DNA of 60,541 nucleotides, the filler included, from Hausera hauseri (taxonomy: Eukaryota): assembly GCA_046269625.1 (NCBI GenBank). It is 9 parts of 9 records of this genome, joined end to end, with 100 filler letters (N's around TTAATTAATTAA, not from the genome) between each part and the next. Parts side by side here need not be neighbours in the genome. Positions count along the whole stretch, not along the records: positions 1 to 4,191 come from JBJURY010710658.1; 8 more parts are not named here. One strand, 5' to 3'. Every line of letters begins with the position of its first letter. Position 1 is the stretch's first letter. Positions 7 through 24,949 of this stretch are shown one piece after another. Made by a program: the position numbers and the translations under genes. The notes under the pieces were generated by a model. It was given only the letters and a program-made list of their open reading frames with translations, ran no database searches and had not been told where the DNA came from.

Positions 7-2341
7 ATCAATATCAACGAATTCCTGCAAGAAAATGTAACAGTTTTCACACCGATGTCTAAGGCAATATACCGACAAATTCATGTAGAGCTACAAGATA
101 AAGTCTGTACGGAATATAATCAAGTAGAAAAGATCCCCAACAACCTGAAAGGACTTACGGACAAAAATAGAAAAATTCGACTATATGCGATGCGGAGAGA
201 TGAAGATGCACGAGCTTATACCCTACAAAATCTGATAAAAGACGAAATTCGACACTACCGTGAAATATTTATACATCTAGCAGAAGGAGAAATTTATTAC
301 CGTATAGTCGGACAATTATGGGATGTGCAAAAAGGACGACAATACAAATTTAGTACTTTCCGTCTACGCGATAAGTGCCTCGAAAACCACGAGCTAGAAT
401 TTCGAACCGCAGCCTTACCAGTAAAAATAATGATAGAAGTTGTTCAAGAGGAAATTTCGCTCGCAATTCTACCCCCTTTAGTGTACCACCAACGACCGAC
501 AGAAGAAGAGATAGAAAACCATTTTGGATCTTATAAACTCGTCCAGGACGGACGAAATGTCCGCATCATCGCTACAAACTACGGGGAAAGCGACGACGGA
601 AATTACATACCGATCGAAGTCTCAATTCGAGATATGAACGGAGTTAGGATATATGAGAAGATCATCATACCCCGGAAAAGGGTGAGAGAAACATACGCGG
701 AAATAACCGGAATCCGAAAGGAAGATTTGATAAACGGAAGAGATATGAAACAAATAGAAGTAGAAATTAACCACTGCGTATATGGATGCATAATAGCAGG
801 TTTCCAAACTCAAACACAAATCGAGAAATTAAAAATAGATGAAAGGAATATCGCAGGAATACGAGAATTCTGGACGCACCCGAAAATAAGAGAGAAGATG
901 GATAACTTAGGCCGCCCTACTCCCATGACGATGGAAACCCAGTTCAAACGATCACAAGATCAACCGACAGCTATCCGCTTTCCAAAGAACGCAATATTTG
1001 CAGGAAAGATATATAACGTTAAAATAGAGCCATGAATGGTCTCCAATAAGCCCAAAACATAACCTACAAAGTACGATTAGTCCAAGAGAACTCAATCAAC
1101 AACACCGAAAACAGTTTTACCCATATTCCCCAGTAAGAATAGTAGAAACTAAAGGAAACAACAATATACAGATTACAACGCCCACTCAAAACAGCCCAGC
1201 TGAAATCGTTTCCTATGGATTCAACGTATCTAAAACCTCTAGAAATGAAGAGGAAGTGTTTCGTAAATCTCCACCCAAGAAACCCAAGTTAAAGGACACA
1301 CAAGAAAAAAATAAAGCGAGATCCATCTATAATTATTTATTCAAAAGAAAGGATAAAAAAGAGAGTTCAACAAATAAAAACCAGCAAAACAAACCAGGAA
1401 CATCTCACAAAAAGGAATTTCCGACACAGCGTCGAAATGAGCCCTCAATTACCGAAATAAATATTCTCAGGCAGAAAAAGAGTAAAGAGGACGTCCACTA
1501 TACCACGGAAGATCAAACAAGAATGTTGGTAACGACAGAATACTTTAGTCACAAAACAATAAAAGAAGCAACTTTTTTTGTGAAAATCACCCCAGCTCGA
1601 GAAGTACATAAAAATACATATATCTGGGAAGATCCTAAAATAGGAAAATATTTAACCGCAGTTTTCAGATCAAAAAGAACGGGAAAACTAACGGTACCAG
1701 TAGACAAGCAGATGCGAATAATCCTGAAAAAACAATACCAGAAGTATCAAATAGATGGAGAAATCTCAGATTTAGATAAAGACCTCGTCGCAGATTGGAC
1801 CCTAGTGCAAGTAAGCTGCGACCCAAGAAAGAGCTCAATTAACCCTAAACAGAAACAAATCCATGGATATTTATACCAAGATAAAGAGGAACTGGTATTC
1901 GAACCCATAGAACTCATATGTCAAGTCGACCTGGACAGAGAAAACTGGAATAAAGAAGATAATGAATGCCCAGTGTGCGAGGCAAGTTTAAAACAGGGCT
2001 ATGTAATATTGGATAACAAAGCATGCCGGCATAAATATTGTCGCGACTGCTTAGAAAGATGGACATTGGATAACGGTAAAACAACTTGTCCAGTATGCAG
2101 GGCAGAGGCCACGGAGCTTAAATACTACTCTAACGGAAATTATACTAGAATAGTCCGCATAAAGCCTCATTACAGTTATAACCTAGAAACAAACCTATCC
2201 AGGAACCAAGATACCCCAGATGATCCGTCAGATTTACAAGAACGAATGAATCGTTTAAGAAGTCCTAGACGCTTGGGCGTCACCTCTCCTGACGCAATAG
2301 GCACATCCGAGGATGCCGTTCAGGGAGGAGAAATGTTATGA
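7..2341 (+). pseudogene. LTR-retrotransposon accessory ORF (env position), copy 1: N-terminal domain, DEDDh-exonuclease-like domain, basic linker, conserved domain, C3HC4 RING; disrupted
   Basis: ORFs 55..1035 and 1256..2341 join through one frameshift (about 935-980) and a TAG at 1025-1027, where copy 2 has TGG. The exonuclease-like segment (about 553-873) reads EVSIRDMNGVRIYEKIIIPRKRVRETYAEITGIRKEDL. The RING (1967-2098) reads CPVC..CRHKYCRDC..CPVC. The region is collinear with 18797-21280. Confidence 0.8.
2322..2333 (+). promoter_or_regulatory. Polypurine tract (PPT)
   Basis: AGGGAGGAGAAA lies immediately before the LTR TG; copy 2 has the same motif at 21331-21340. Confidence 0.8.
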
Positions 2342-3083
2342 AAAACCAAATTGTAGATGAGAGTCAATTTGTAAATTAGAGAGGAAAACAAACCAGCCTA
2401 TGTAAATAATTTATTCCAATTTCATATCTATTAACTCGCTTGCTACATGTATATATTATTGAGCCATTATATCCATCTGTAAAATTATATTAGCCATTAA
2501 AAACCAACGTATATAGAAAACAAACCAAATTAACCATCGGCAATATGTAGAAAACATGATAAGCCATTTGTCTAATGAGAAGTAGTGATATATATATAAG
2601 CATGGACTGTGGAAGAAGAGACAGAAGTAGAGAAAACGAAAGAACCTCATCGACTATAGCGTTGATTTGCTGATATTACTAACGAAAAATTTGCAATCCA
2701 TTCACAACGTCAATATTGAACTATTCATCGATTGATATACGAAAGAATCCAAATTGACATTTTCCGTTAATTGTTGAGTGATTCGTCTGATCATTATATT
2801 GTGAGTATTACATCTTCTTTTAAAATCCCTAATAGTTTTCATCGGCCCTTAAGGCTGATTTGTGAGCACACTAAGTATAAATTTTGACGTAAATTATATA
2901 AGTACTAGAAACTACTAAAACCGTGCACAGGACACACACGCACTACATTCACATTCACGTAATATCGACATATTAGGCACATTCGTTTATCGAGACCGAT
3001 AAACCGAATTTGCAATAGAACAGAAATATCGAGTGTAAACTGTTATATAGCGGGAGACGTTAAGGGCCACCCAAAATATAACA
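2334..3083 (+). mobile_element. LTR (3' LTR of the exo-RING element, copy 1)
   Basis: TGTTAT...ATAACA inverted termini, preceded by a PPT, with a TATA-like run near 2590 and conserved blocks shared with 21341-22114. Confidence 0.8.
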
Positions 3084-3094
3084 CACACATACAT

Positions 3095-4110
3095 TACCAA
3101 GACTAAATTGGTGGCATACGACTTTGATATTCGTTACGTACCAGGAAAATCTATACCTCATATGGATGCACGATCGCGATTAAAATATCGAAACAAAGAA
3201 TATCAGGATTCGGAAGAAAAGCGAACAATGACTTTGTTTTTCGCGCATCCGGCCCATTTTCCGTCTTAGATGAAAAGGAAGTGCAAGAGGAATTACAAAA
3301 AGACAAAATACTAAGGAACATAATCAACCCACTCGTAATGGCAAACGGGATAAATGTTCTCAGGCGGAATTGCCCTACGAAAAGATTGTGGGAAAATTAA
3401 CCGTCGAAAATCACTTGTTGTATAATGGCACCAAGTTACTGATACCGGCCAGATTGAGTAATAAAGTATTTGCTGACTCAAAATTAACCAATCAGGAATA
3501 CAGTCAACATTACAGAGATTGCAAATAGGGCGTGGTGGCCAAATAAGATGGAGTTTGTATACAGGCAAATAAAAAATCGCAGAGCGCCAAAAACAGACCT
3601 CAGTGTGACAAAGATACGGACACCTGGCCGAAAGCAGCTCAGTTTGAAAGAATTCATATGGATTGGGCACATATAACAGACATAGGCAATTTGTTAATCA
3701 TTGTGGATGCAAGAACTAGCATCTCACTGCAACGACCACTTTATAAAATGTCAATGAACAATTTCCCCTAACTGTGGTATAGGATAATAGTCCGGAATTT
3801 GTAAGTGAAAGACTCAACGCATGCTTACGGAATCCAAGAGCGTCAAGTATGAAAACTCCTCCATATAACCACAGGTCTAATGGATCAACTGAACGGGCTG
3901 TACAGACAGTGAACCAAGCAGCAAAGGCAGGGAACTTCAATACAATGAAAATCGGTTTAAAGGAGATTCTACAAAAAATCTGTTTTATCACAGAATATCC
4001 ACAAGAACCAGAGGGCTTTTTCCGTAGAGATGGAATTCGATAATGGCACCAGTTGTGTCAAGTTCCTCACAAGGTAAAACGGTTTTCTACTGCAGTAGTG
4101 TAACATGGGC
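3095..4110 (+). mobile_element. Degenerate Ty3/Gypsy pol fragment (RNase H end plus integrase)
   Basis: LVAYDFDIRYVPGKSIPHMDA, RIHMDWAH..LLIIVDA, DNSPEF and TPPYNHRSNGSTERAVQTV appear across frameshifts. Confidence 0.8.
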
Positions 4111-4420: not shown

Positions 4421-6021
4421 TCAATTAGATTAAAACAATAATGAAAAAGACAGGTTTTTTTCAAACCAAATCTAAATTTTTATTAAATCAAACTTTACGC
4501 ATGGAAATCACACAGTAACATCAGACAGATGTCCTAGGGATATCACTAACACAAAACATGCTCAATATTTTGTTGGCCACTTCTGGGACGAATCACAGCT
4601 TCTAGGCGTTCTGGCATCGATTTAATCAGTGACACAATACTCGGCAGTCACCTCTGTTTACCACACTCGTTTCATTTTCTCTTCCAGATCACTCAGACAT
4701 GTTGGCCGCAGCTCGCCAACCTTTCTTTTCATCATCGCCCAGCAATTTTCGATAGGATTCAGGTCAGGTGAGTTACCATGCTATGGTTCCAAAACGTTGA
4801 CATTATTTTCATCAAGCCATCTCCGCACCAAGTGAGCAATGTGAGCCGGAGCACCATCTTGTTGAAAAGTTGTTCATGAGTGGGCTGCTAATGTCGGCAG
4901 GATGTACAGCTGAAGAAATGAGAGGTAGTGCGCCGCTGTTATTGTTGCTTTCTTATGAACCAGGTAGAGAGGACCACCACCGGCACATTATATTGATGTC
5001 CATATAATGATTGACGTCAAGTTTTTCACCCTGCCAACCGTGTATCGTGGATTGGAACGCTCTCCAATAGAACGGCGAACAAATGTGGAGAAGCTGTAGA
5101 ACTGTCTAATGACGTTTTTCATCACTAAACAGAGTGGTAGACCAATCAGCCACACTCCAGGTTTTATAGCGATGTGCAAATGCCAAGCGGTCCTTGATGT
5201 TTTTGGCTGACAAGTGAGTTCTCGGGCCAAAATCATGCTGGAGATGGTATCGGATTGTTCTGGGATTAGTGGGTGTGACAACTGAGAGGTGATGAATGAC
5301 GATAATGCAGTTGGATCTTTGAATACCATGCACTTGATAGCGCGATCAGTAGCTGGTGTAGTAACTCTTGGTCTTCTTCCTCGTTTTTTAGCCAGGAATG
5401 AGCCAGTTGCATGATATCGGGACAGACATTTCTGTACCGCACTTCGAGAGATTAGAAGTTGCTCTGAAGTTGTTGTGTAGCCTTCTTGACGTAAAGCAAC
5501 AATCTGGCTGACAATATGAGGAGTATCATAAGCTCTTCCCACGTATGATATGAAAGAGTAGATGGAAGAATGAAAACCTGTATTCCGCAACAACCGTTAT
5601 TTATAGGGGCTGCCATGCATTGCAACTGTCTCTTTCACCTTCAATCTCATTGGTTCATACATCTTGTTAAGCTGGCTTGCATGCTGCAGTCACGTTGCTT
5701 CAGTCTTGGCAACGTACCGGGGGCACACTACGCACATCTCTGAGTGATTTGTTAGAGAAAATGAAGCGAGTGTGGCAAATAGAGGTGACTGCCGAGTATT
5801 GTGCGTCACTGATTAAATCGATGCCAAAACGCTTAGTAGCTGTGATTTGTCCCAGAGGTGGACCAACAAAAAATTGAGCATTATTTCTGTATTAGTGACA
5901 CTCCTAGGACATCTGTCTGATGTTACTGTATGATTTGCATGCTTAAAGTTAGTTTGATTTAATAAAATGTAGATTTGGTTTGAAAAAAAACGTGTTTTTC
6001 ATTATTGTTCTAATCTAATTG
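4421..6021 (-). mobile_element. Tc1-family transposon, degenerate transposase (about 4563-5525), flanked by about 280-bp inverted repeats
   Basis: HTH region (SRSAVQKCL..GRRPRVTT), FSDE, FQQDGAPAH and NSPDLNPIENCW motifs; 4421-4700 is the inverted copy of 5733-6021. Confidence 0.85.
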
Positions 6022-6029
6022 CAAGAACA

Positions 6030-7465
6030 ATAAATAGGAACAGTAAATAAGTTTCCAACAATTACTGGCTGCCGGCTACCGACATGTTTGAAAGTTTTGC
6101 ACTGCAACTCAGAAACAATTAGATCCATACCACACTTCACTACAGTCAAACCTGTTTTGCAATAAGTTGCCACCCTCTATGAGAAGGCCAACATCCCGAT
6201 GGTGACCGAGCGTCGAGCCAGTGTGAAGATTGTGAACAAACTCCGTTCCATCCCCCTAAAATCGCAGAGATATTCTGGCCATGCAGAAGATGGAAGAAAA
6301 TCAACAAATGCTGCAGTCGACATTCCAGTTCTGGCCACCTGATGCAGAACGTCTGATCAAAGATGCCGAAAATCGGGCATTTCTGCAGTAAGCTTCGGTT
6401 CTTTCGACAAAACTGGCAAAGATAATTGAAAGACGTCATCAGCGTGAATCCACTGCCTCAAGATTTCATTACTGAAGAGCATTGAACAGCTGCTACCAGC
6501 CGACATCAGGTGCCAAAAGTCTGAGTATTTGTCACTCCTCTAACTCACATGTACTGCAAGTGGCGGCTTGCTTGCACGAAAGCAACTGACGCACCATGGA
6601 ATAACTTACAACTGTTCAAAAGACTGCTGCAGTATCAACTTGTCGACAAGAACATTTCTCAGTCTCCAGTGCGAGACTTTGGTCGGCATTTGTGGTACCC
6701 GACTGCTGAAATAGTGCCACTGTCACTTCAGCACTCGTGTGCCTTCACCGGAACACCAAGCTATTACTGATGTACTATTGCAAGTTCGGTCAGCCACTAA
6801 ATTACGAAGTCCTGGAATCGTTCTGCTGCCGGAATCGTTTACTGCCGTCACGCTGTCCACACTGTTGTCTGTTAGTGGACTCCTGGTTCACGATGTTCCT
6901 TCTGCAGATTGACAGTAGCTTTCTTCACCTGCCAGTCAGCGAATGGAACGCCAGTATAGGATACAAAACAAGCTTCGGAAACGTCAAAGCGGTGGATCTG
7001 GTGAATGATGCTGCTGAACGCGGTGTCAAGCTATCAACGGATTTTGTCAATGCTGTTCGTAGGGATGAACATTATCATAATGTGCGTGAGACAAAGCTCT
7101 ACCCCAAGAAAAAAATTAGTACTTAAGGCCTAAGCAGAAGGACCTTTGATAGCACAAACTGAACCATCAAATCACTTGGGAACTGAACATGTGTCTGCTT
7201 TCTAATGTGATCCAGTATTTTAATACTATATATTGTGTGTGATTTTCTGAAAAATAAAATGTTTTTTTCTTCGTCTAATGGGAAATGGCAATAAAATGCA
7301 TCGATTTTGCATATTCGGTTTTCTAAATACGTGATGGGACCTCTAAATCACTTTGGATTCTCAAAATGTTTTATACGCCTGCTCCATGCACACAGCAACA
7401 AACTGGAAACCCCGACAGCAAGAAATTTGAAACAATTTTTTGCCCAACAGATGTGACGCACCCTA
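6030..7465 (+). mobile_element. Internally deleted hATm-like DNA transposon
   Basis: RHLWYPTAEIVPLSL and VNDAAERGVKL motifs; ends in CACCCTA (reverse complement TAGGGTG, a hATm-type terminus) at 7459-7465. Confidence 0.55.
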
Positions 7466-8941: not shown

Positions 8942-9949
8942 CCGATTCCGATGCTGTTGGATTCTGAAATTTAATGGTATCAGAAGAAGTTAACGATTTT
9001 ACCGATTATAAATTTACATGTAGTACATGTTCTAGGCCGTCTCAAACTTCCTGCCAATGAAGTTTCCATAAAATAAAATTGCCAACAATCGCTACTCATC
9101 AATATTTTATATTGATTTGGGAATACAGAAATTCAAAGTATAGTGCACATTACTTAATTAGGTGGATACTGTGTAAGAAACGTGAAAGATAAACGTGGGA
9201 TTGGCAATAATCAACAAAACACAGAGACACGCAAATTAAAAGTACATGGAGATATCGGTTATTATTTATTATAACTGATTATTGTTATGATCCGATTACC
9301 AACGTTATCACAAATTAAAAGCCATCTAATAGATAAAAGAGACGAATCCAGTCGTACATTAACTTCTGGTGTTTGCTATTCTCCTTTTTGGCCATTATTC
9401 GCCAATTACTGATCGAGTTTCAGAATGGAAATTGTAGAAGGTATATTATTTCCCATGTTCTGTATGTCGTTATCTCCCTTGTAATGACTCATTTTCATNN
9501 NNNNNNNNNNNNNNNNNNNNNNNNNNNNNNNNNNNNNNNNNNTTAATTAATTAANNNNNNNNNNNNNNNNNNNNNNNNNNNNNNNNNNNNNNNNNNNNAA
9601 AAGACAGTAAAATCCATGATCAAGCGCTTTAGTGAAATAAGCCCCCAAAAGTAGGCGTATCGCTCAAAATTGTTTTGATCGAATAACAAATGGAAATCTG
9701 TGCATTTGTTGGACCAAGACATCGTACCATCGTGTAAACTAGAATTGACCGCATCGGTAACATTAGTACATGACACCTTTGGGAGTTTGCTTACCCAGAT
9801 AGGAGAATACGTTAGACAACAATATTGCCAATTGAGAATTTCTCTCGATGATTTTACTGAATAATCACACTCACGCACACAACTGGGAATTAAAACCGAG
9901 GAGATCCTGGATTTGATAATTTTCTTTATTCAATGCTTTATTCAATTTG

Positions 9950-10600
9950 TTTCTCTAATCGATACCACCATACAATCAAGAATCCCATTCGTTGAGAGCT
10001 CGAACGGTGATGAACTGCTATGATTCGACTTCGTCACCGGGATTGCGGTTTTCAATAATTGCGCCATGTTCACATCGACAGACCAATTTAATATCGTTGC
10101 CGAGGTTGAATCTACGATACTGATAACAAACAGATCCCAAATTGTCATCTTCGTCTTCTTCAACAAAAGTATTCATATTTGTAAATGAATAAATTTTTTC
10201 CATAGAAATAACTTGCTGAATAAAATTATGATTAATATAAGTCGCCTTTAACGATAGACTCTTGGCCAAATTCAAATTGTTATTGTCATCAGTGGGTGGA
10301 TCAACTGCAGTTTCATTGACACTGACAAAATCAAAACTATTATTGCCGGACTGTTTGTCAAGGAAAAGAACGTCACCAATGCGAGTAGCAACAATATCCC
10401 ACGATTCCAGCGATCGTGAACAGCACATCAACGATGCAATTATCGTATTAGTGGCATAAACTGTGCCGGCATTGTCCTTTGTCAAATCTGGGATGACTGG
10501 ATCTTCGGTTGTCGTAACGTTGTGAATTAATTTGTTAAACAGTCTCAACTTCTGTGGATTTCTCGTAAAAATTCTGTCGTAATTTTTGTCATAATATCCA
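9950..10600 (-). pseudogene. EIF3D: eIF3 subunit D central fragment
   Basis: GYYDKNYDRI..HNVTTTEDPVI..VYATNTIIASLMCCSRSLESWDIV..LFLDK..VSVNETAVDPP..YRRFNLGNDIKLVCRCEH; truncated at both ends. Confidence 0.85.
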
Positions 10601-11020
10601 ATAAACGAAACACTTCTGCTAATCTACAACGAAATTGACTTTCAATTCGACTAAACGGCGAAGTCGAACTGGCCGAAAGATAATTTACACAAATAACTCC
10701 TTTTCGACTGGCGAGCTGCAAATAATTTGCAATTTGATCTTTCGGCAATGCAGCCAGTAGCAACTGTTCCGAAATGTCTGCTAACGACAAAATTGACATA
10801 GGATCCCCTTCAATTTCATCTCTAAATCGATACGCTTTAATTATGTTTTCCCAATTCTTTTTTGAACAATTTCGATTTCATTATTCTCGTTACTCGTTGG
10901 CGTTGTTCCATCAATTTAACGCCTTTAATTTAAGCTGGTTGTATCAATTCTTTACGAAATGCTGGATCATCTGGATGCATGTTGCAATAAGGAGAAAGTT
11001 CCGTAAATATTGCTGTTGAC
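10590..11020 (-). pseudogene. Adducin/Hts N-terminal fragment fused to the eIF3d fragment
   Basis: HPDDPAFRKEL..MEQRQRVTRIMKSKLFKKEL(frameshift)ENII..VICVNYL..ESQFRCRLAEVFRLLDI matches adducin MEQKKRVSMILQSPAFxEELE..PVNDL..EKLLRCKLAAFYRLAD. Contains a stop and a frameshift. Confidence 0.7.
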
Positions 11021-11329
11021 ATTTTGTAAAGTTCTAAATATTTAGTAAAATTGGAAATAAAAAGCAGAAAGATGTAAAATTAAGTTAAATTAAATATTTT
11101 GCTGCCATGAAAAAGTCCAATAAAATTAATTCGAGTAAATAATGAAACGTCATATCAGCGTGTTTATTGGATGCAGCCACATAAAACGAATCAATATTAA
11201 TATTCCATTCTGTTAAGTTATTCCTAACTTTATCTAAGACAATCTCATTGAAATCAAATCATTCAAATATATTCGTAAACGTAGCAATAGTATAAGACCA
11301 CAACTTCTTGAACGTTTTTTGTCACCAGA

Positions 11330-14300
11330 ATATGAATTGCTGCACGGAAATTTTAGAGGCGGAAGATCGGGACCCGCCTATGGGCCTTACGCGGTGGCTA
11401 CGGAGTCCCAGCTGTGTCCAACCAAATGTGCCAGAGGGCGCCGGCTGCTGTGGGTACTACATCACCCCCCCCGTGGCAAAGTGAAAACTATGAAGATTAA
11501 AACAGACGGGAATAAACAAGCGCTAAACGAAAAAGTGTATATGTCAGTTGGTCTTAGTGTGGACAAGACGTTGGGTATCTTCTATTGATTTTCCCTGCTA
11601 TATTTGCTGAATGTGACTGCGTGTTTTGCCTTTTTGCGGTGTGTTTGCTTGCAGAGGTTGAAGTTGGGGAAAATTGTCGGATTTTGTTGTGAGTGTTGTG
11701 TCATGCAAGGATGATTCAGAAAGAAGAGAAGAAGAGGGTGAAGGAGGAAGACAGATTGTTGAAGATGGATGGCTACAGGTATTCAAGAAGGTGTTGGAAA
11801 ACGAAGGAGTGACAAAAGGCGTAGTGGCGGATGAAGGAAGAGAGACGAATACTGGAGTGAAAGTTGCAACTGAATTAGACAAACGAGTGGAGGTAAAAGA
11901 TGAAACAGAGGTAGTAGTAGAAAGAGGAAGAGAGATAGAGATAGAAGTTGAGAGAAGAGGAAGTTGCCAAGTGGAAATGAAAGGAGTAAAAGGTGGTGTG
12001 TGAGGAGAGAGGGAGAAAGAAGGCGTCAAAGATGAGGAAAGTGTGGAGGGAGAAGGAGAGTGCGAGAGATGATGGCGAAGAGGTACAAAACAGAAGAGAG
12101 CAAAAAGATGGAGAAGTCGAACGAAAGTAGTTGGAAGGTGGTGTGCAAAAGGTTGGAATGATGAAAGGGGTGGATGGAGAGATTGATGAAGTCTAAATGG
12201 TGATTGATGGAGGAAGTACTGTAAATGGAGAAAGCAAGTTGAGAGAAAACGTTTTGGGAGAAAACGTAGGGGAAAGTGGATTAAGAAATTGAGCAAAGAT
12301 GGAAGGTGAATTGTTGGATTGCGCGTCGTGTGAAAATATTGATGGAGAAGTGGTTTCGATGGGAGACGTGTCGTCAATGAAGAAAGCCGGTTTAGGGTTA
12401 ATGATGTGGACTGTTACTTCTTTGCCGTCTTTGAGAATGATGATGTTGTGGGAGAGTGGACGATTTACTTTGTAAGGGCCGACATACTGAGGTTAAAAAC
12501 CACACGACGTCTGATTCTTTAGCCAAACGAACTTGGCAATATATAAATCGTCGGGAATGTAAGGTTTATTTCCGTGTAATAGTCTATAAAATGAGTCTTT
12601 GCTGATCTCAACGAAGTGTCTCTGTGCCACTTGTATGGTTTCGTCTGTAAGAATATTGTCCAGCTCAGTCAGCTTGAATAATGATCTGATAGGAGTGCCA
12701 AATAATGCTTCTGCAGGTGAACATCCTGCAGAAGTAGATGGTGTGTTCCGCCAGCCAAGCAGAACGTACAGAAGGAGTGTAGTCCAACTGCGATTGGACT
12801 CAGCAAGGATTCTGAGAGACGTTTTCATCGTTCGGTGAAAGCGTTCGAGAAGACCATTCGATTGAGGATGGTATGGTGACGTGTGAATGTGGTTAATTCT
12901 CAAGCGATTGACAAGAGCTTTAAACAGGTTGGATTCGAACTGTGGACCTTGGTCTGAAATGATGATCTAAACCTGCTGATCCAAGTGCGGATGAAAACTT
13001 ATGCGATTATTTGTGTGTTGGTGCTCCGAAGTCGGACAGCCTCTGTCCATCGCGAGGAACGGTCCATCATTGTGAGGATGAACTAACGGACGTTGTGTAA
13101 GGGTAATGGGCCTACAAGGTCAATGTGAACAGATTCGAAACGAGACGTGCAGGGGAAATGAAATACTGGTGGCTTTAGGTGCTTAGTAACCTTGTATTTT
13201 TGGCATACCACACACTGCCTATCCCATGCCTGCACGTCAGAGCGCATCGACGGCCATACTACATGCCGTTGTAAGAGTCGAAAAGTTGTCTTGGCACCGG
13301 GATGATGCAACGAATGGATGCTGTTGAATGCTTCTTTTTGAAGCGATTCAGAAAGGATGATTTTAAGATTATTAGGTTTGAAAGTGTCAAAGGCCACACC
13401 GTCGGTGGTTTTGCACGATTTAAAAGATTTAAGGATGTCAGGATGTGGCTGGTTTTGTTAATGTTTGGACTGAGGAAAAATTGGTTGTACAATCAATCGA
13501 GCTGACCGATCGGGACAAAAAGTCAACTACTAAATTTTCGACTCCGTTTAGGTGCTCAATTTGAAAATTAAATGTGGACAAATACGATATTTTCCTCTCC
13601 TGACAAGGAGAAGGTGATTTCATGGTGAGAATTTAAAGCAAGGGCTTGTGGTCAGTTTGTATTGTAAAGGTTCGTGCGGTTAAAACATACTTAAAGTGTT
13701 TTACGGCAAGGACCATTGCAAGCAACTCTCTGTCAAAGGTGGAATATCTTTTCTCTTGTGCCGTGAATTTTCGAGAGAAGAATTCTAATGGCTCATGGGA
13801 TCCATTTTTGACTTGATGGAGGACAGCACCTGCAGCTGTTGTGGATGCGTCTGTGATTAAGAAGAGTTCTGCATAGGAATCTGGATAGGCCAGGATTCCT
13901 ACGGTTGTTAAATTGTCTTTGAGGTGATCGAAAGCGTTGACTAGCTTGGCGGTCCATTGAATAGGCTGTTTCTTCTTGCCAGAGCTTAGTGATGCAAATG
14001 GAGCGGTTAGAGTGGAGCAGTGTGGAATATGCTTATGAATAAAGTGCAAGGTTTTGAGGAAATAACGCATCTCTGTTGATGTACATGGTAGCTGTATGTT
14101 TTTTAGCTGTGTTATGCGGTCTGGCTGAGGTGATTGTCCGGAGGAGCTAATAACATGTCCTAGAAAGTTGACCTTATGTTGAAAAAGGAGAATGTGGCAA
14201 AATTAATTTGCAAACTGTTTTGGTACAAGAGCTGAAAGATTAGACGTAAGTGTTCGGAGTGTTGTTTCGGGGAAGATGATGCAATTAGGATATCATCAAT

Positions 14301-17014
14301 ATAGGGATAGGCAAAGTTTAAACCTGATAGGACTGTATCGATATGCCTTTGGAAGGTCTGGGAAGCGCTACGGAGTTAAAAAGGCATGAAGAGGTATTTG
14401 AAAAGTCCGAAAGGTGTAATGACAGACGTTTTCGGAATGTTTGCTGGGGTCACCGGAATTTGATGGTATGCTTTGTGTAGATCAATGCAGGAAAAGATGG
14501 TCGAACCATGGAGCCTGTGAAGAATGTCGATGATTAATGATAGAGGGTTGGCATCCATTGTTGCTATGGAGTTAAATTGGCGGTAATCATAGCATGGGCA
14601 AAAGGTACCATCTTTTTGGAACCACATTCAGTGGTGAAAACCAGGGGTATTTGGATCTTCTGATTATTCCTGATCTTTCCAGTTTGAGAAACTCAGCCTC
14701 CACTGCCAGTCTGCGACGAAGCGATAGTGGACGGACCTTTTGACGTATTGGTCTTTGATGTTTTGTTACTATGTGATGGAAGGTGGATTGAAGTGGTACG
14801 AATGATTTGTCCTTTTGCAATAGACGTGTACAGAAAGACGAAATGTATTGTTGTAGATCAGGCGCCGACGATGAAAAGTTATCCGATGGTGTCGATGCAT
14901 CGTGACTGGATGCAGTTGAGGCATGAGTTGTAGACGAGGTGTTGTCACTGGGTGGTATTAGATGCGGGATGTTCGTGTTGAAGATGGTGTTGGCAGCTGT
15001 ATTATTAGTAATAGGTGCCACGCAGGTGGCAATATCATATTTGTCACCGTAGTAAAAATTTCTGTATAATGAATGATTATAAAAATAATTCAAATCGGAA
15101 GTCGTTTTCTTCTGTATTGACTTGCTGGAAGCGATTGCCATTGTGGTCACCGAAATGCTGCTAATTTGATTAAGATTATTTCCGCACTTTAAGGAACATC
15201 GTTTGCAGTCTACGAGTAAATTGTAGTGGGACATAAAGTCTGAACCCAATATAGGTGGGCATACATTGGCTACTGTATATTTCCATGTGAATGTGTTTGG
15301 GAAATGTGGAAGAGTAAACGTTAATTTGGTAACTTCAAAAATTTGTAAAGGTTCACCGGACGCAGTGAACAGTTGCTTTTTTGAAGTGAAATTGTTTTGA
15401 ATGGGAGTAAAGAGATTGCTGCGCTGGTGTCTATAAGAAAGTTAATGTTTTGCTTTGTTGGAGTGACAACTGCCGCTTCCAACGTAAATATAGCAAAAGA
15501 AATGTGTCGGCTATGTTTTTGCAGGTTGTTGCCTTTGATAGGACTTGCCGTGTGTCCTAGCGGCAAAATCATTTTCTGTAGCTGGTGAGTTTGGCCTACT
15601 ATTTTGTGTGAGTTTAGTAGTGTTGGTTTCATTGTGTGTGTGTTGTAGTTACAGCTAGGTAGGCATTTTTGTGCCTTTGTGCCAAATTTCGAGTGATAGA
15701 TGCAAACGATGTTACTTGTGTTAAAATCGGGGGAGTAAAATTTACAACTGATGCAGCATTTCTGAGAGTTATTACCAAATTTGTTATGGTAGTAGCAAAT
15801 AGACGACCGCATGGGCGAAGTCGACCGTTTCAGTCGTTGATTAAATACATTAGGGGAAGTAGCTCTAGAAAAACCCCGTTGAGGCAGCGTTAACTCATTT
15901 AATTTGTCGTTTATGTTGTCAATTGTTTTTTGCAGCATTTCATTTTCTGTGCGTAATTGCGCAATTTGTTGCTGCAGCATTGCATTTTGTTGTTGTTGTT
16001 GGTCCGTTGTTAATGCCGCAGAGATCTTTAATGATGTGTGTGAGTGCAGTACTTCATTGGCCTTGTCCGCCAGTTCAGTTAGCTTTTCCAGTGCCGTGGA
16101 TTCTTCAACCACGGTAAGCAAAGCTCTTATTTGAAGGGACAAGGCATTTAAAAAGTAGCGACGAAGAAGTTCTGGACTATGCTCAGATGTTACGCCAAGG
16201 GTATTGATATGAGACAAAGATGAGCGCAAGAATTTAGAAGGCTTTTGAAGGCCCATGGTGTTGTTAAAGAATCTGTGAATGATTGAATCGATTAACTGCT
16301 CAGTAAGCTTAAGAACGGCATTATAATGTTGAGTATAGGGGTCGGTGTGATGAAGGACGTCTATGATATTGGTAATTTTAGTTTTGATGGAAGCTGGTAA
16401 ATTAAAAAAAGGCTGTTGGCTTTGGATAAAAAGTCGACGACGTTCTGTGATTGGGGCCAGAATTGATGCAGTTTAGCCTAGTTTGAGTAGAGTTTTGGCT
16501 GTCGAGGAAGTATTCTGTGCAGGGTGAATGAGTGAGGAGTGTGTTGTGTCGAAGTTTTTGAAGCACATTGTTTGGGTAAGTAAGTTATAGAGATTGGTGG
16601 TTTGGTGAGTTTGTCCGTGGTATCAATTGTGGGTGATGAATCCATTCCACCACGGATACGGAAATGAATGTGAAGGCAGAAAAATGTTGTGGAAGGTTGG
16701 AGGGGTCCAGCAAAAGGCACTACAGATCCACTGTGCGTGAGACAGAAATCAGAGGAGTGAAGAGAAGTGATGATTTTATGGATGGCAGTTGTGTTTACAT
16801 GTATTACTGTATGTGTGCAAATGTATCTATTGTTTAGAAAAAAGAAAAGGAGATAAGGAGAGGTCGTGTGTCCGGGGGCGTGTCATGGTGCAGCAACGAA
16901 CGGTGCCGTCTGACCCAATGGCATAGGGTGGGCGGCGGTAATTTCAGTCTCGCCGTGACGGGCCGCAAACTGCGGGTAGCCGAGGACCCCGGTTGCAGTT
17001 CAGCGTTGACTACA
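11330..17014 (-). mobile_element. Ty3/Gypsy LTR retrotransposon, near full length, degenerate (family B copy 1)
   Basis: gag (MGLQKPSKFLR..YFLNAL..LTELADK; two CxYHxKFG..KC motifs), protease FLIDTS, RT (DLHKAYHQI, YPYIDDILI), RNase H (TDAS..DRELLA..TDHKPL) and integrase (HIDLVGPL, SNGLLERFHR). PPT at 11462-11472, then an LTR starting TGTAGT at 11461. Confidence 0.92.
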
Positions 17015-18545
17015 GACCCAATAGGATTATCGTCAAGTTGTAATTGGGCAGATTTTGATAAAGGCGTCTCAGGTACGACACAATCCGCAATTGCAACATG
17101 ATTGACAATTTGATGTCGAACTCTGTTCGCATCGTCCGATTTAGTAAAGGAGTGTATTGCAACAGACAATTTTCCTTTATCCGATCTAATTGCAATTTTC
17201 TCAACAGAAACAACTTCCGATTGGCATATAATTTCCGTATGATCATTTTTGTCAATATTCCGATAAATAAAATAATTTAATCCGTCCGGTAAAATGTCAT
17301 CTAAATGACTTTTCACTTTATATACGTGGGTTATTTCCAGTTTGCTACGATCTACACGTATTCGATCAAGACTCCATGTCAGTTCTGTGCCCAAAGATTC
17401 GGCGTTCGGTTCCAACTCTGATATTTTCCGTGTCAATGGAATAAGACTGATGATTCTGTGATTAACAACCTCGAAGAGTCGATAGGAATGAGAATTTATC
17501 TTTGTTAATCTTGCCTGACAAATCTAATCTGATGCACTTCCAGTTTTAGGCAAAGTTACTATAATTTCCATTTGCTTTTGAACATGAGTATCAACAAAAA
17601 CATAGCAAAACTGTTGCATAGCTTCAACTTCATTAATTGGAATTTTTAATAATTGGAAGTAGAGACGTCTATAACAGTTTGCAGAATGAAAATTCCCAGT
17701 CGGACAAGATAAAGGCTGATTATTTGTGTTAAGTAACGGCACATTTTGATTTGGCTTTCCACGTGGAAGAATGGCATTAATTTGCTGTTGAATTTGAGAA
17801 TTTGCTAGATCACCTAACGCTCCGTCGAAGGTTGTTCTGACGGGATCACCGGGAATAAGCTTGGTTTTGTATCTATGAGACGGTACCGAAGTCTTATAAA
17901 GTTGAATTTTAGCTACGTCAGCCCCATGAATATGTAAATCGAGAGATTTAAGAATTTCACTGTACCTAGCTTTTTGTGAAAGACGAATAACTGTTCTAAT
18001 AGGGCTAGGTTTATTATTTATGTCTCTGGAAGTAAGTTCACCAATTTTTTTAATAAATTATACATCTATTTTTTGTCGGAAATCTTCTAGGAAATCTTTC
18101 GCGTTTAGAATTGGTAAAGAAAGAGAACGTGTATTATATATACTGTGGGAATCACTCCTAGAGATCTTATATAAGGATGGTTTGACATTTGGCTCAAGTA
18201 TAATTATCATTCCATTAAATGGTGATATAAAGCTTTCACTAAAATTTATCAGTTAGATTTCATCCTCGTTCTTCCCATAATATCAGTTGAACATTTTCTG
18301 ATAAGTGAACAAACTTTCTTAAAACAGGAAATAGTTCTCTAACCTGAGGAGCAATTTTATAATGTATCCATCCAACGAAATGCATTGAATTATTGGCAGG
18401 ATCGAAATATTTGCAAAATATTAAAATCTGTTTTTAATCTGTAGGGGTTGAAGTTTGCGTAGGATTATAATCCGAAATATTATAAATATAAATATCATCC
18501 GAAAATACCGAACAAGTCTCCGACAAATAATACGTAAATATTGTA
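17015..18545 (-). pseudogene. USP7: USP7 (HAUSP) C-terminal UBL-domain region, disrupted
   Basis: FCKYFDPANNSMHFVGWIHY, QLILWEE, NAKDFLEDFRQKIDV*F, IRLSQKARY, IQLYKT..PGDPVRTTFDGALGDL, RRLYFQLLKIPINEVE and YRLFEVVNHRII parallel USP7 UBL2-UBL4. In-frame TGA, TAA and TAG (17524-17526) plus a frameshift; cut at about 17014 by TGTAGT-starting sequence. Confidence 0.8.
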
Positions 18546-18796
18546 ACTTCAGCATTATATTTTACAATGGAAANNNNNNNNNNNNNNNNNNNNNNNNNNN
18601 NNNNNNNNNNNNNNNNNTTAATTAATTAANNNNNNNNNNNNNNNNNNNNNNNNNNNNNNNNNNNNNNNNNNNNTACGTCTATGATAAAATAACCTGACAA
18701 TTACAGATCGGGTTATTCTATCATCAAACAAAGAATTAATTTTGGTTCAAAATCACACTTTGTCATAAGATTAACCCTTATTATTTATATTTTAGA

Positions 18797-21280
18797 ATGG
18801 TAAGTACCCAGATCCAGAAAATGAATTCGGGAAAAGTTTGACGTAGTATCGATGACTTCTTGCAGAGCTGTGCAACGGTGTTAATCCCTCAGTCAAAATC
18901 GATCTTTCGACAAATCAATTATAAATTACAGGGAAGAAACTTTGTAGAATATAAGAAAACTAGTGAAATTCCAAATAACTTGAAACGAAGTACGGAAGAA
19001 AATAGAACCGTACGATTGTACGCAATGAGGGACGATAAATATGCACGAGAAGACTGCTTGCGACAACTCATTCAATACGAACCGGTTTATCACCAAAATA
19101 TATTTATTCATCTAGCAGATGGAGAAATCTACTATAGATTAAACGATCAAAATTGGGATACGTCACAAGGGCGACAGAGCAGATACAGTACTTTTTTAAT
19201 TAACAGCGGAGACTTTCACCACTATAATTGCGAAGTAGAATTTCGAGTTGCCGCATTACCGGTTAAACTTTTGATTGAAGTACGCTATGAAGACGCAAAA
19301 TCTATTCAATTGCCACCCTTGCGGTTTAATCAGAGGTCCACTGAGAAAGATCAAGATGACCATCTGTATTCTTTTCGGTTAGTACAAGACGCCAGAAACC
19401 CTAGAATCATATCCGTAAACTACGGTGAAAGAGATGATGGGAACGACATTCCAGTTGGAGTATCTATACGAGAATTAGGAGAATCCGAAATTTGCACAAA
19501 GACCATCAGTCCCAGAAAACGGATAAGCGAACCTTATTCAGAATTTACAGGAATCAAGAAGGAGCAATTAGTTAATGGAAGAGACATCGAACTGGTTCGT
19601 GAGGAATTGCTCCATTGTCTATACAGAAGTATACTCGTCGGATATCAGGTAGAAAAGATCATGGAAAAATTGAAGTTACTTATTACTCATATAGCAGGAT
19701 TAAGGGAAATTGAGACTCATCCTGAAGTAATGGAACAGATGAAACAGACTGTTCAAAGGAGAAACGGCTATCTACCACAGACCGTAGAAGGTCGATGTAA
19801 GTTGATGTTAGAGGCCATGAACGGAGCACATGTTCGGATAAGCCGACTGCTGACAGTAAGCCAACGCTCACAATACTTACGAGACATATATGCAGGACTT
19901 AAGTGGGAGCATGAATGTACTCACGATAATCCTAGTCAAAATTTACGAAGTTCGGCCAATCCCGAAGGATTAAGTTCCAAGCACAGAAGGCATTTCAGGA
20001 CTTATTCTCCAATTAGAACTATCGAGCTAGTACCAGGAGATAGTTATCAAGTTACTATTCGGAAGACCGAATCAGAACCAGTCACAGCGGCAAGAGAAGT
20101 AGAAAATAAACCCAGTACCAGTCGAAATTTCAATCTAGACTCAATGAAACAAAAACCAAAAAATCAAGAAACGTTTAAAGCACCTAAAACCCTGGAAAAG
20201 AATAAAGACGGCAGAATAAGGACTACATTATCCACTGGAAAAAGAAAATTATCCTTATATAAGTTCCTTTTCAAAAAGAAAAATCGGGAAGAAAATAATT
20301 GGAAAATAATTGAAATAAGACAGAATCCAAAAGGACAGAGGTCCGAAACAAAATAAAAGCAACAGAAAAAGAATCTGAAAGCACAAAAAACCCGAATAGA
20401 GCGGAAACGAAACATTCTGAAGAAATAAAAAGGAAGATTAGAATCCAACCCCAAAGGAGGAAATCCGACAACGATGTCAACACCACCGAAATAAATATTT
20501 TAAAAAAGAAAAGATCGGAAGAGAACGTCCACTTTTCGACAAAAAAATACTTTCCCAGGTTACTGGTGACCGCTGAGAATTGTAGTGATCAGAAAATAAA
20601 GGAAGAGATGTTTTAAGTAAATAGTGCTGGAATACGAGAAATCCCAGATGGAGCATATGCTTGGGCGAATTCCGAGATAGGGAAATACCTAGCTCCCATA
20701 TTTAAATCAAAAAGAACTTGTAAGTTATTTGTCCCTGTAAACAATCAAGTCAAATTGATGTTTAAGAAGCAATACCAGACATACCAAAAGACAGGTGAGA
20801 TCCCTGGTTTAGACAATGAAACAATTAGGGATTGGACATTGGTCCCCATGAATTACGACCCTAGAAAAAGCTCAATCAACATCCAACAAAAGGAGCTATA
20901 TGGCTATCTGTATTCCAATCAAGACGAACTAGTACTTGAGCGAATCCGAATTATACCTAAAATAGACCTGGATGATGAAAACACGAATGAAGATGAAGAC
21001 ATTTGCCCAGTCTGTAAGGAAAGTATATGACAGGGATACGTCAAATTGGATAATCAAAAATGCCGACACAAATATTGTAGTACATGTCTTGAGACGTGGA
21101 CTTTGGTTTATGGAAAACTACGTGCCCAGTATGTCGAGCCGAGACAAATGGTCTAAAGCACTTCTCGAATGGTGACTTTAATAGATCTGTTCACATCCAG
21201 ACCCAACCCAGCGAATAGAGGCGAATCCAGTCGATGACAGTAGTCTTCGGAGTAGACTGGAACTACTGCGACGGCATTAA
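18797..21280 (+). pseudogene. LTR-retrotransposon accessory ORF (exo-like plus RING), copy 2; disrupted
   Basis: ATG at 18797 is in frame with ORF 18860..20356 apart from one TGA. The exo-like domain spans about 19394-19710. A frameshift occurs near 20300, after which the sequence follows copy 1 to the RING CPVC..CRHKYCSTC..CPVC at about 21004-21134. Confidence 0.8.
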
Positions 21281-21340
21281 TTGGACGCCACCTCTCCTGA
21301 CGCAATAGGCACATACGAGGTGTCGCTCACGGAGGAGAAA

Positions 21341-22114
21341 TGTTATGGAATGTACATAATAGAAGTATATTACGATAGTAGTTATTAGGTGTACTGTAAT
21401 AAATTAGTTTGGAATATTAATGTGAATGTTATTTATTATTTAATTAGAAATCTTAATGATTTATGTGAAATTTTCTGTATATCTGAAATTAGAAAAATCT
21501 GAAGAAATGCATAATAATCGACTACAATATTAGATAATCGAAATAATGAAATTTAATCTGTAAATAATCAATGAAAATGATGTAATCATCGGAAACTACC
21601 AGTATATATAGCGACCGAATTTTAGAATAAATCAGAACTCTTCGGAGTTAGACTCCAACGAGAAACTGAGCGAAAGATTCCAAAGACTTTCAGATTCAGT
21701 AGAGTGAGATAACAGAAACAAGGAAGACTGTCGTTGTGATATCGACTGTTGCGAAACTTCAGAGAAATTGATTGTCGACGATCGTAACGAACGATTGAAA
21801 ATTTTGTGCGAATTTGATAACAATTATAATTTAGTTTTTAAATCGTCTTAACTTCTATAGTTTTCCATCGATCCTTAAGATCGATTTGACTACACTAGGT
21901 CGATAAAATTTTACGTAATTTATATAGTTAAGAGGGAGCTCGTATTAACTATTGCACAGGAATCGCACAAAATACCTGCATTTATTAACGTTATAAGTCA
22001 TAAGGTACATCCTGATTTACCGAGAACGGTAAACCGCACCTGTTACCAAAAATAAGTGATTAAAACTATTGTTATATAGCGGGAGACGAGCAGGCCCCAT
22101 CCCAAAACATAACA
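21341..22114 (+). mobile_element. LTR of the exo-RING element, copy 2, with PPT upstream and PBS downstream
   Basis: TGTTATG...CATAACA termini, PPT GGAGGAGAAA at 21331-21340, and a TATA-like run near 21603. Confidence 0.88.
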
Positions 22115-22116
22115 AT

Positions 22117-22133
22117 TGGCGACCCTAGCAGGA
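22117..22133 (+). promoter_or_regulatory. Primer-binding site, probably tRNA-Arg
   Basis: TGGCGACCCTAGCAGGA starts 2 nt after the LTR end. Its complement ends in CCA and resembles the tRNA-Arg PBS TGGCGACC...CAGGA of 412/mdg1-type elements; the tRNA identity is inferred. Confidence 0.7.
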
Positions 22134-22524
22134 CAGTTTGTACCTCGCTAGACTACTACTTCAGCAGAGAATTTATTAAAGCAACATACCCGCGATCAGC
22201 GCATCGACACCAATTAATTGAACTGACTAGAATATAAAATTCGGGATATAAGTTCCTATATTTAAATAAGTGGGTTTTAAAGCACAAATATTGACAGGCA
22301 TAGTAGATCTAAACAATTGAACCTTAACGGTAAAGAGAATTCAAACTTAAGACGAACCCGTAGTAGAGCAAAAACAAACTCAAAGGAAAAGCGTTTATTA
22401 TCTTTAGTCACGCGTAAATCTAACAAATTTATCAGACCAGGATCAAGAAGTAAACTTCAAAGTTCCACCTAAATTAAGTGAACGACGCAAAATAGAAAAT
22501 ATAGCCCACGCAAATACAAATAAA

Positions 22525-24949
22525 ATGGCAGTTGTAATACCACAGCCAGACGGAAGCTGGACATTTTTACGTATGAGTCGTTGAATTTACCGGCATACGA
22601 CTGTGATCCGGAAGGATTAATTGAATTTCTCAAAACTTATAAACTTCACGCCAAAGGCATAGGACTAGAACCTCAACATATGATTAGACGATTATCACTT
22701 TATTTAAAGAATTTGGCCGCAGATGCCTATGCAGAGCTGACGGACGAAGAAAGGAGAGATTGGACATCGTTAGTAGGAGCATTAAATAGGAAATTATTGC
22801 CGACAGTAACCCCACAACAAAAGTTGATGGTGTTTTAAAATAGGACGCAACAGAAGGTAGAATCGGTTACCCAGTTTGCGTTTGCCTTAAAAAAAATTAG
22901 CAAACAGTTATATCAATACAATGAGAATTTCGAACGTGGCCAAGGCAAAAGATGAGGCCGAACGGTGAGCTGCGGAAAATGCAGTCCCGTCAGATTTGGA
23001 CGTAATGATGACAACACAATTAATTAATGGTATTTGGTCAACAGACCTGGTGAAACAATAATTTCTGGCGAGACCAGAAAATTTTGAGAAAACATTGCAA
23101 CTAGCACAAGAATTAGAGATGGCGCCAGACAGATATGCTAGGCAGAATGAACGTTACGCCGAACGGAACGAGCGTAGCAATAGAAATAGAAACATTGGAC
23201 GATTCCAAGAAAGCGGTCGAAATCGGAACTACGATATTAGGATGGATAGGAACCCATGTTACGAGAACAAAAATTTTAATTATAATCGGAACTCAAGCAA
23301 TGCGAATATGAAGCCGAATTATAGCTCGAACCAAGATGGTTATAAAAACAATAACAAAAGTTTCAAATACAAAGATGGAAATAGATAAAATGATTTTAGA
23401 AGCGATAAAAACAAAATTAGTAGAAATATTCAATTAGAATCCTCAAATCCAGGTTACTCTAGGAACTCGTGCTGGTCAAAATCGCCCATAAACGAAGACG
23501 GCAAACAACGGGTTGGTATAAACGGGAATTTGATATGCTATATGTGTGGCAAGGAAGGCCACATAGCAAGATCATGTCCGAATCCTCGAAGCGTTTCGTT
23601 TACCGAACCTGCTAAAGTAAAAATGATTAAAACACAAGAAGATTTAGAGGCAAAATATGGCCCAGAGGTGAGAGACGCAATTTTGTATATTCAAGATTCA
23701 CGAAGATACTTGAAAAGTCAAAGAGAAACTAATAACCCGCAAATACTGAAGTCTCGAAAAGAGTATGAGGATAACGTACAAATATTAGAAGTGTGTCATG
23801 GATTAGTTGAACCTCGAACGGAATACAAATACTTGCTGTCACCCGATAATAGTAATATGGTTCGCAAGATGAACGTGCCTGTAAAACCCGTAGGCACAGA
23901 AGAGGCAAGCGAAGTTGAAGTAGCATTGACATCGTCCAGCATAGACTTGGACGCTGAATCTAAAAACTCGACAGAAGGACGTCGCGATATCAGTGATGAG
24001 ATTAAGAGTGAGTATATAGCTCCATTAGTGCTTAAAATAATGAAGAATAGAGGTCGTAGTCTATCAATTAAAAGGAGACAAAAGGTCGATTAAGATCACC
24101 ATTAGAAAGAGACAACGTAGGAAAAACCGACTTCCAATATGTTGACGTAGAGGACAACCCGAGCTTTAACACTTCAGACGTGGAGCTTACCGAAGTTTTA
24201 GATACTCCAAGTACAACCGTAACAGTAGGAGACGCGAACAGCGAAATAAATGAGATATGTTCACTACCCAATAGTGAAGACGAAAGTGATGGCACAGGAC
24301 GAGTTAAAAGACTCGACGGGAAGATGTGGAGGATCAAAAAGTCATAAAGAAATGCAGATAAATTAAAAGAGATTAGGACAGTCCTAACCGATCCAGAGAC
24401 GATACGTCGTAATCTCGAGGAATTGGAGTATATAAAAACTCAAGTAGATGTGTCCGGAAAGGAGCAACAATTTGGGGAGAAAATGTACAAAGAATTTAAA
24501 CGGTACATTGAGGAAGATTTTAGAAGGGAGAAAGAACAGGAAGAATTGAATGAAATTGTGGAGAAATCAATTGAAGACAAAACTAGACTCACGGATAAAA
24601 AGCGGAATCTACTTCACCGACACATGGAATAATCAAGAGATAGAAATTAAAAGTAAAGTGTCAACTGACCAAGGATTACTAAAGACGTTAGAGACGGATC
24701 CAAAACAGAAGCGAACAAAACGGAATTTATAGAAACTGATGACCGAGATAGAAAATGCAGTAATCTATCACCTTAAAAATAAACCGATAAACAAATTAAA
24801 TGAAAACGAATTCTTAATACTAGGCATAAAACCTGTAGATGTTTCTCTCGTAATGGAAATATGTAAGTTCGCGTTCAACGCGCCTAAAGAATACGCAGAT
24901 ATAGGAATCCGCACAGCCTCGCAAGATAAAAGACGCTCCGAAATCTACA
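22525..24949 (+). mobile_element. gag of the exo-RING element (degenerate) with CCHC knuckle and long extension
   Basis: Capsid-like LSLYLKNLAADAY..WTSLVGAL..Q-K-ESVTQFA; N/R-rich linker; CYMCGKEGHIARSC at about 23536-23577; runs into the contig end. Confidence 0.82.

Follow-up and report, generated by a model that had tools for sequence, protein, structure and literature searches.

The window analysed here, a stretch of 60,541 nucleotides from Hausera hauseri (GCA_046269625.1; filler included), consists of nine contigs joined by N-linker-N spacers. It holds two LTRs, LTR 1 on the contig at 1-4191 and LTR 2 on a separate contig at 18674-24949, in the following setting:

2270-2333, plus strand: pre-PPT segment and polypurine tract (PPT) of element 1, at the end of ORF3; pairing is possible between TCTCCT (2285-2290) and AGGAGA of the PPT (2326-2331)
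2334-3083, plus strand: LTR 1 (TGTTATG...TATAACA), the 3' LTR of element 1
21341-22114, plus strand: LTR 2 (TGTTATG...CATAACA), with ORF3/PPT of one unit before it and PBS/gag of the following unit after it
22117-22134, plus strand: PBS-like 18-mer, starting with TGG 2 nt past the end of LTR 2
22525-24093, plus strand: first AUG downstream of the leader (with A at -3 and G at +4) and a gag-like region, decayed and broken, with a zinc knuckle

Both LTRs have TG...CA termini with short inverted repeats, as expected of gypsy-type elements, and each directly follows a PPT, itself preceded by a decayed ORF3; the PBS-like 18-mer and a zf-CCHC gag are found after copy 2 only. The 18-mer may be of tRNA-Arg type, and the window contains no tRNA genes with which to compare it. 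On contig 18674-24949, the position of LTR 2 between ORF3/PPT and PBS/gag points to a single LTR common to two tandem units. Downstream of LTR 1 lie decayed pol-like remains from another element, and the contigs of both copies are cut before or after pol. The earlier note had assigned the two LTRs to a single element encoding an exonuclease-like and RING-bearing ORF3. This was not borne out, as they lie on separate contigs and the ORF3 products are 49% identical in amino acids; judged from their sequences, they are the LTRs of two diverged gypsy-type elements and not the pair of one element. ORF3 of copy 1 carries a RING finger (Pfam E 2.6e-9), and an RNase T-like domain reached an Atlas feature score of 0.90, which is a lead only.

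The segment comprising the end of ORF3, the PPT and the start of the LTR is 86% identical between the copies (2273-2337 and 21281-21344). Pairing of a word like TCTCCT with the PPT has been described for Sire and HIV (PMC3601003), and the pre-PPT segment showed no shared structure above shuffles (z -0.66). Host-gene cargo in the two U3 regions was considered and rejected, the longest stop-free frames having 65 and 71 codons. Compared by eye with the motifs listed in Table 3 of PMC3601003, the 5' TGTTATG fits Mag A (Ty3/gypsy) at 7/7 positions, and the LTR 3' end fits Mag C at 8/8 and Mag A at 11/12, this motif being close to the general LTR consensus. The LTRs are 750-774 nt long here, in contrast to mean training lengths of 174-213 nt in the Mag groups of that table's source (PMC3601003). 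The termini resemble Mag att motifs, and the window holds no pol of this family for a clade assignment.

Upstream of the alignable part of the LTRs, a putative promoter can be placed in each copy:

2589-2600, plus strand: TATA box 1 of copy 1, predicted promoter; transcription is predicted to start at the CA of 2622-2623 (CAGAA), 30 nt downstream of the TATA start (2593)
21603-21612, plus strand: TATA box 1 of copy 2; CA of CAGAA at 21633-21634, 29 nt downstream of the TATA start (21605)

The TATA-to-CAGAA spacing is 29-30 nt in both copies, though the sequence is otherwise unalignable. The U3 regions contain 8 (copy 1) and 11 (copy 2) ATGs, the last at 2602 and 21580. From the first TATA box onward ATG is absent: none occurs to the end of LTR 1 (2620 to 3083; 8.1 expected) and none in copy 2 up to 22525 (9.1 expected). 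A count of zero was reached in 0/1000 dinucleotide shuffles of each copy, ATG being the most depleted of the 64 triplets, and the segment between TATA 1 and TATA 2 taken alone gave zero in 0/1000 and 11/1000 shuffles. CAT is not depleted in copy 1 (11 against 10.3 expected) and slightly so in copy 2 (9 against 12.3). No other ATG-free run in the window, whichever the strand, is as long as that of copy 2 (945 nt); the next in length, of 884 nt, falls within the 3' part of an unrelated element, where composition is skewed. This absence of AUG from the first TATA box onward, found in both copies, is new here, and such a signature offers a simple way to place the transcription start in LTRs that cannot be aligned. 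These data suggest that transcription starts near 2623/21634 and that a leader of ~890 nt is scanned as far as the first AUG at 22525. The AUG depletion lends indirect support to plus-strand transcription of the hairpin region downstream of the TATA box, as the earlier note had claimed. Each LTR has two TATA-like words, and TATA box 2 (2893-2901) was rejected as the main promoter because the depletion starts ~300 nt upstream of it. Twelve letters of the leader (22320-22331) coincide with the start of a flatworm spliced leader (PMC3795323); the match stops there and is probably due to chance.

The same leader bears on the suggestion that this region is an IRES. Its length of ~890 nt and some degree of structure would suit an IRES, but a stretch of 890 nt with no AUG at all is the mark of scanning, the hairpins described below are small and lie 500-650 nt upstream of the first AUG, and the search of the window against Rfam that had been proposed as a check returned 0 matches at gathering score, the best E-values (0.91 and 0.065) being below gathering, at chance level and not common to both copies. 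Since the leader lacks upstream AUGs over this whole length, we consider an IRES extremely unlikely.

Conservation between the two LTRs is concentrated at their 3' ends, where only the last ~250 nt are alignable (68% identity, E 2e-12, blastn). The following modules lie there:

2841-2859, plus strand: hairpin 1, copy 1, 7 bp with loop CUUAA; loop plus G form a 6-nt palindrome
21867-21885, plus strand: hairpin 1, copy 2, perfect 7 bp
2876-2901, plus strand: conserved block, 21/26 identical, with a weak 5-bp stem, an ACGT loop and then the second TATA-like word (2893-2901)
2924-2932, plus strand: invariant TGCACAGGA word, 9/9 identical
2986-3003, plus strand: hairpin 2, copy 1, 7 bp with an AGAC/AGAA loop; AGGYACAT word just 5'
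22016-22033, plus strand: hairpin 2, copy 2, same fold as in copy 1

A two-row consensus fold of 2826-3083 against 21852-22114 (63% identity) reached -28.6 kcal/mol, compared with -9.6 +/- 3.2 in column shuffles that preserve the gap and identity pattern but not dinucleotides (z -6.0), and its SCI of 0.55 was matched by 0/100 shuffles. Control folds were null, with z 0.27 for the middle of U3 and z -0.17 for ORF3 at the same 63% identity, and folding of the single sequences was modest (z -2.29 and -1.75, dinucleotide shuffles). A pair of local hairpins, each of at least 7 bp and common to both rows, arose in 0/300 shuffles and their 3 double changes in 1/300. Identity along the alignment is modular: from hairpin 1 (21/31) on, it runs through 3/13, the ACGT/TATA-like block (21/26), 9/22, 9/9, 26/41, the surroundings of hairpin 2 (22/35), 11/32, 19/19 and 18/24. 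An alternative helix, 2833-2839/2908-2914, scores in the two-row fold but was discarded at a pairing probability of 0.01-0.02 (plus strand, copy 1).

All eight sequence strings on which the earlier note had built its model are present where it placed them, and the compensatory changes that it reported hold up for hairpin 1. Between the copies, hairpin 1 shows two double changes and one G-U/G-C change with an unchanged loop; given its 5 stem changes, keeping all pairs with 2 doubles would occur by chance in 0.4% of draws under the empirical substitution spectrum and in 4-5% under transitions only (p 0.004-0.05). Hairpin 2, with 1 double change, is the weaker case, all pairs being kept by chance in 3% (empirical) or 8% (transitions only; p 0.03-0.08); 200,000 draws were made for each hairpin. 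Pairing probabilities of the two hairpins are 0.91-0.98 in local folding, those of hairpin 1 in copy 1 dropping to 0.23-0.49 in two global folds. Spacers and U3 vary while the modules are conserved, and compensatory changes maintain the pairing of hairpins 1 and 2, the covariation resting on two full sequences, too few for R-scape-grade covariation, with 3 double changes altogether, all transition pairs. Immediately 5' of hairpin 2 (2975-2982, 22003-22010), the word AGGYACAT appears for the second time in each copy, the first being before the PPT (2299-2306, 21307-21314); it is possibly a repeated protein-binding word.

Hairpin 1 presents the self-complementary CUUAAG on a conserved stem in both copies, and its extended self-duplex (-22.0/-18.2 kcal/mol) compares with -8.5/-6.6 kcal/mol per strand for the hairpin, although such a duplex is possible for any hairpin and TTAA is common in AT-rich DNA. 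Because of the self-complementary loop and the extended duplex, hairpin 1 is a candidate dimerisation palindrome like Ty1 PAL, and among the functions earlier proposed for the region a dimerisation or replication signal is plausible by this analogy, whereas the IRES is disfavoured. Palindromes have been proposed for Ty1 dimers (PMC4974528), and like Ty1 PAL and the HIV-1 DIS kissing loop, hairpin 1 has a self-complementary loop able to form an extended duplex; it differs in lying inside the LTR, upstream of the PBS, in its AU-rich palindrome and in that its dimerisation is a prediction. Given its place inside the LTR, it would be present at both RNA ends.

Family-level conservation could be followed through the one public sequencing run that matched, X1 (0.65 of the words of the stretch), the search giving no RNA run. 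Assembled contigs of X1 were compared at 80% likeness, and 207 of them fell on 2815-3100. Their summed depth is 1,629-2,256 at hairpin 1 (2835-2864), 6,504-7,451 at hairpin 2 (2975-3004) and 1,841-3,422 at the U5 motif (3035-3074), compared with 51-330 in spacer bins (2865-2954, 3015-3034) and 12-17 in the private U3; none of these values is a copy number, as short overlapping contigs inflate them. Past the end of LTR 1 (3084 on) the depth falls to 4.5, and 15 contigs have loose ends behind 3083. The three motifs, exactly those singled out in the earlier note, are common to many more sequences than their spacers, an observation that is not independent of the window, since X1 may be its source or come from its species. 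The X1 contigs are too short to give phased variants inside the modules. As a separate observation, by far the highest summed depth in these contigs, 34,757, belongs to the segment around the PPT (bin 2225-2363), with 59 loose contig ends before 2276 and 63 behind 2337; to judge from these ends, the segment of ORF3 end, PPT and LTR start is a short cap common to many elements with different flanks.

Searches for further copies gave no third LTR within the window (blastn and a two-row nhmmer profile), a 36-nt match at 59929-59963 (E 0.037) being rejected as it lacks the 3' arm of hairpin 2. Exact-pattern scans returned 2 and 0 matches in viral contigs, 3 in metagenome contigs and 1 in genome contigs, all 6 consisting of the motif alone with no similarity in their flanks. 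Homologous protein searches gave no relatives among 5,524 and 5,364 candidates, and protein-led searches no related loci among 4 and 169 stretches. As these searches found no homologous LTR elsewhere, covariation stays confined to the two copies and is not family-wide.

Conserved words need not act as RNA, and we weighed the possibility that the modules are double-stranded DNA elements, namely transcription-factor palindromes, downstream promoter words and a duplicated att word, with the apparent covariation produced by template switching that repairs quasi-palindromes. In both copies TGACGTAA/TTACGTAA stands directly 5' of a TATA-like word within the conserved block (2876-2901, 21902-21927); TGACGTAA/TTACGTAA is presumably bZIP-like, and together with TATA-like words it recurs at 2885-2901 and 3044-3050. 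The invariant motif near the LTR end starts with an att word copy, and several conserved words, such as TGCACAGGA at 2924-2932, have no pairing support. These facts would fit DNA elements, yet a protein site keeps its sequence, whereas in hairpin 1 two pairs of the inner arms changed symmetrically around a constant loop; moreover, relative to the predicted start the region is 220-460 nt downstream, within the AUG-free leader. We therefore regard this explanation as unlikely. The block at 2876-2901 itself, whose weak stem has a pairing probability of 0.2-0.6, may represent a third, weak hairpin or else an internal promoter.

The position of both LTRs directly after an ORF3 with a RING finger and an RNase T-like lead recalls the bdelloid retrotransposons Juno and Vesta, in which an exonuclease-like (DEDDy) ORF3 lies just before the 3' LTR (PMC5408684); ORF3 here differs in being fused or adjacent to a RING finger. 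A hairpin might accordingly serve as the RNA ligand of the ORF3 pseudo-exonuclease/RING protein, in the manner of a Rev/Rex- or Tat-like pair, and catalytically inactive DEDD proteins can retain RNA binding, as reported in a section of PMC5408684. The association is one of co-location only, and such hairpins are expected in LTRs with no ORF3 at all, so that we give this idea, which the earlier note had also raised, very little credence. The terms hairpin, secondary structure and PBS are absent from the main text of PMC5408684.

The remaining features concern the end of the leader and the LTR's 3' end:

2623-3050, plus strand: predicted long R region, ~430 nt and AUG-free, both ends predicted
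3015-3035, plus strand: zone where a poly(A) signal probably lies (a non-canonical one in copy 1), placed by prediction
3041-3083, plus strand: U5 terminal stem, copy 1; an internal att-like word copy, TGTTATAT, pairs with the LTR end, and GGG with CCC; 3041-3059 is invariant
22070-22114, plus strand: U5 terminal stem, copy 2, with one A.C mismatch on the plus strand, G.T on the minus strand

The structured RNA domain put forward in the earlier note was to be closed by a long-range helix (2831-2838/3037-3044; 21857-21864/22062-22069). This helix proved to be at chance level: helices of at least 8 bp arose from its AT-rich 5' segment in 237/500 and 299/500 shuffles, it has 0 covarying pairs, and the positions of its partner are shifted by 3 nt between the copies. 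It pairs with a probability of 0-0.62 when the folded sequence contains the LTR end; a value of 0.78 was reached only for copy 1 cut at 3055, with 0.0 for copy 2 in an equal context, and in copy 1 the helix overlaps and competes with the U5 stem. Of the proposed domain there stand the shared fold beyond shuffles, the depth peaks and the AUG-free leader, but not the closure. A conserved domain in the leader, probably a structured one, is supported, and the conserved hairpin modules within it are real and probably functional as a set, which is smaller than the domain first proposed.

The second claim on this part of the LTR, an invariant 19-mer (3041-3059; 22070-22088) able to pair with the LTR end, fared better: the word is identical at 19/19 positions and complementary to the end (8 bp + 3 bp in copy 1; 7/8 + 4 bp in copy 2, where the stem ends 2 nt before the PBS), but with no compensatory change. 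The motif begins with a copy of the integrase att word (8/8 with the Mag C 5' motif; PMC3601003 Table 3), and LTR ends are complementary to an att-like word by nature, according to the same part of that source (PMC3601003); the 3' arm of the stem is fixed by integrase anyway. The plus-strand probability of the stem is 0.02-0.89 depending on context. In X1, a variant at 3051 (505/2,934 of the summed depth, 14 contigs) converts a mismatch of the stem into a pair.

Stability of the stem is also greater on the minus strand, which raises the possibility that the modules work chiefly as DNA hairpins, in minus-strand strong-stop DNA: there the complement of U5 would fold away and the R hairpins would be exposed for strand transfer, so that RNA structure would not be needed. 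In every context folding of the minus strand equals or surpasses that of the plus strand (alifold -29.1 against -28.6 on plus), the 5' hairpin that dominates in the minus DNA is the U5 stem (z -2.39, -2.14), and both of its mismatches are G.T pairs on that strand. Against these points, the wobble (G-U) pair in hairpin 1 speaks for the plus strand, the complement of an A-rich plus strand has more wobble pairs through composition alone, and the informative positions number only two. We hold a mainly DNA-level role on the minus strand to be improbable.

Between hairpin 2 and the invariant motif lies a poly(A)-like zone, with ATTAAA at 22059-22064 in copy 2 and a canonical AATAAA in some related X1 contigs. 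Cleavage occurs 10-30 nt downstream of the poly(A) signal in the LTRs treated in PMC2664473, from which R would be ~430 nt long and U5 would reach little beyond the terminal stem. This arrangement, with the zone between hairpin 2 and the U5 stem, invites the view that the hairpins control 3'-end formation by hiding the poly(A) site in the 5' LTR and exposing it in the 3' LTR. Precedents, as given in part of PMC2664473, are the HIV poly(A) hairpin and the R stems of HML4 and HTLV, and in copy 1 the closing helix forms only if the RNA ends near 3055 (0.78), a longer RNA forming the U5 stem instead. As that switch depends on a helix at chance level, with 0.0 in the equal context of copy 2, we find such control quite improbable.

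We favour, with somewhat better than even confidence, the reading that the modules are retrovirus-like R/U5 replication signals in the long AUG-free 5' leader of a gypsy-type family. They would be cis-signals in packaging and reverse transcription, the role of each hairpin being assigned by analogy, and the steps of the mechanism are given in falling order of confidence. First, transcription would start near 2623/21634 and the leader would be scanned to the first AUG at 22525. Second, polyadenylation near the invariant motif would place both hairpins, within an R of ~430 nt, at both RNA ends and leave little more than the terminal stem as U5. Third, hairpin 1 might nucleate RNA dimerisation through a kissing loop and then an extended duplex. 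Fourth, hairpin 2 and its minus-strand complement might serve Gag/NC binding or the first strand transfer. Fifth, the U5 stem directly before the PBS might modulate priming, like a U5-IR stem. Two further points count against this reading of the modules as replication signals: in retroviruses, signals for dimerisation and packaging are usually found downstream of the PBS and not in R, and a second TATA-like word exists at 2893-2901.

For the fifth step, the precedent is the U5-IR stem-loop of Rous sarcoma virus, a similar structure being present in Tf1. As in that system, an inverted repeat in U5 directly adjoins the PBS and overlaps the integrase end; unlike it, the U5 stem here shows no covariation, and its minus-strand form is the more stable one. 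For retroviruses and the Ty elements of yeast, good maps of cis-acting RNA structure exist. Conservation is higher in R/U5 than in U3, which PMC3601003 and PMC2664473 link to stem-loops. Conserved R/U5 stem-loops beside a variable U3 are a known LTR feature, and this kind of structure is expected. The present LTRs agree with the retroviral and Metaviridae ones in the variable U3 and conserved R/U5, in the TG...CA termini, in a residual conservation of long R regions tied to stem-loops, and in a TATA box upstream and a poly(A) signal near U5 (PMC2664473, PMC3601003). They depart from them in a predicted R of ~430 nt, compared with the 11-150 nt quoted in those parts of the two papers, in the freely changing spacers between modules and in a U5 made of a stem from a second att word copy. 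The excerpts of PMC2664473 and PMC3601003 that bear on LTR structure give none for an invertebrate gypsy LTR, and in the open-access literature our searches returned neither these modules nor the leader structure of an invertebrate gypsy element. Being small, sharply bounded and common to many related sequences, the modules are direct targets for probing and dimerisation assays.

A more far-reaching proposal, which we think unlikely but worth stating, is that the whole RNA-level replication code of these elements consists of three tiny modules in an unusually long R/U5 and a short PPT-LTR-start cap, the rest being free to change, and that this forms a portable cassette across many diverged elements. 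If so, any RNA placed behind the cap could be packaged and copied by the cassette.

The window also contains other mobile elements. A second gypsy family is represented by two copies, at 9599-18573 (minus strand) and 30507-34901, which are 85% identical over 4.4 kb; a profile search of the window found the modules studied here to be absent from it. After a G-run PPT and a TGTAG start, this family carries an eIF3d-like stretch (10018-10623, Pfam E 1e-65), and at its other end a USP7-like stretch (17524-18057). Finally, an 87% identical inverted pair (4422-4702 and 5734-6021) flanks a PAX/HTH ORF at 4988-5596, and pair and ORF together are a Tc1/mariner-like DNA transposon.
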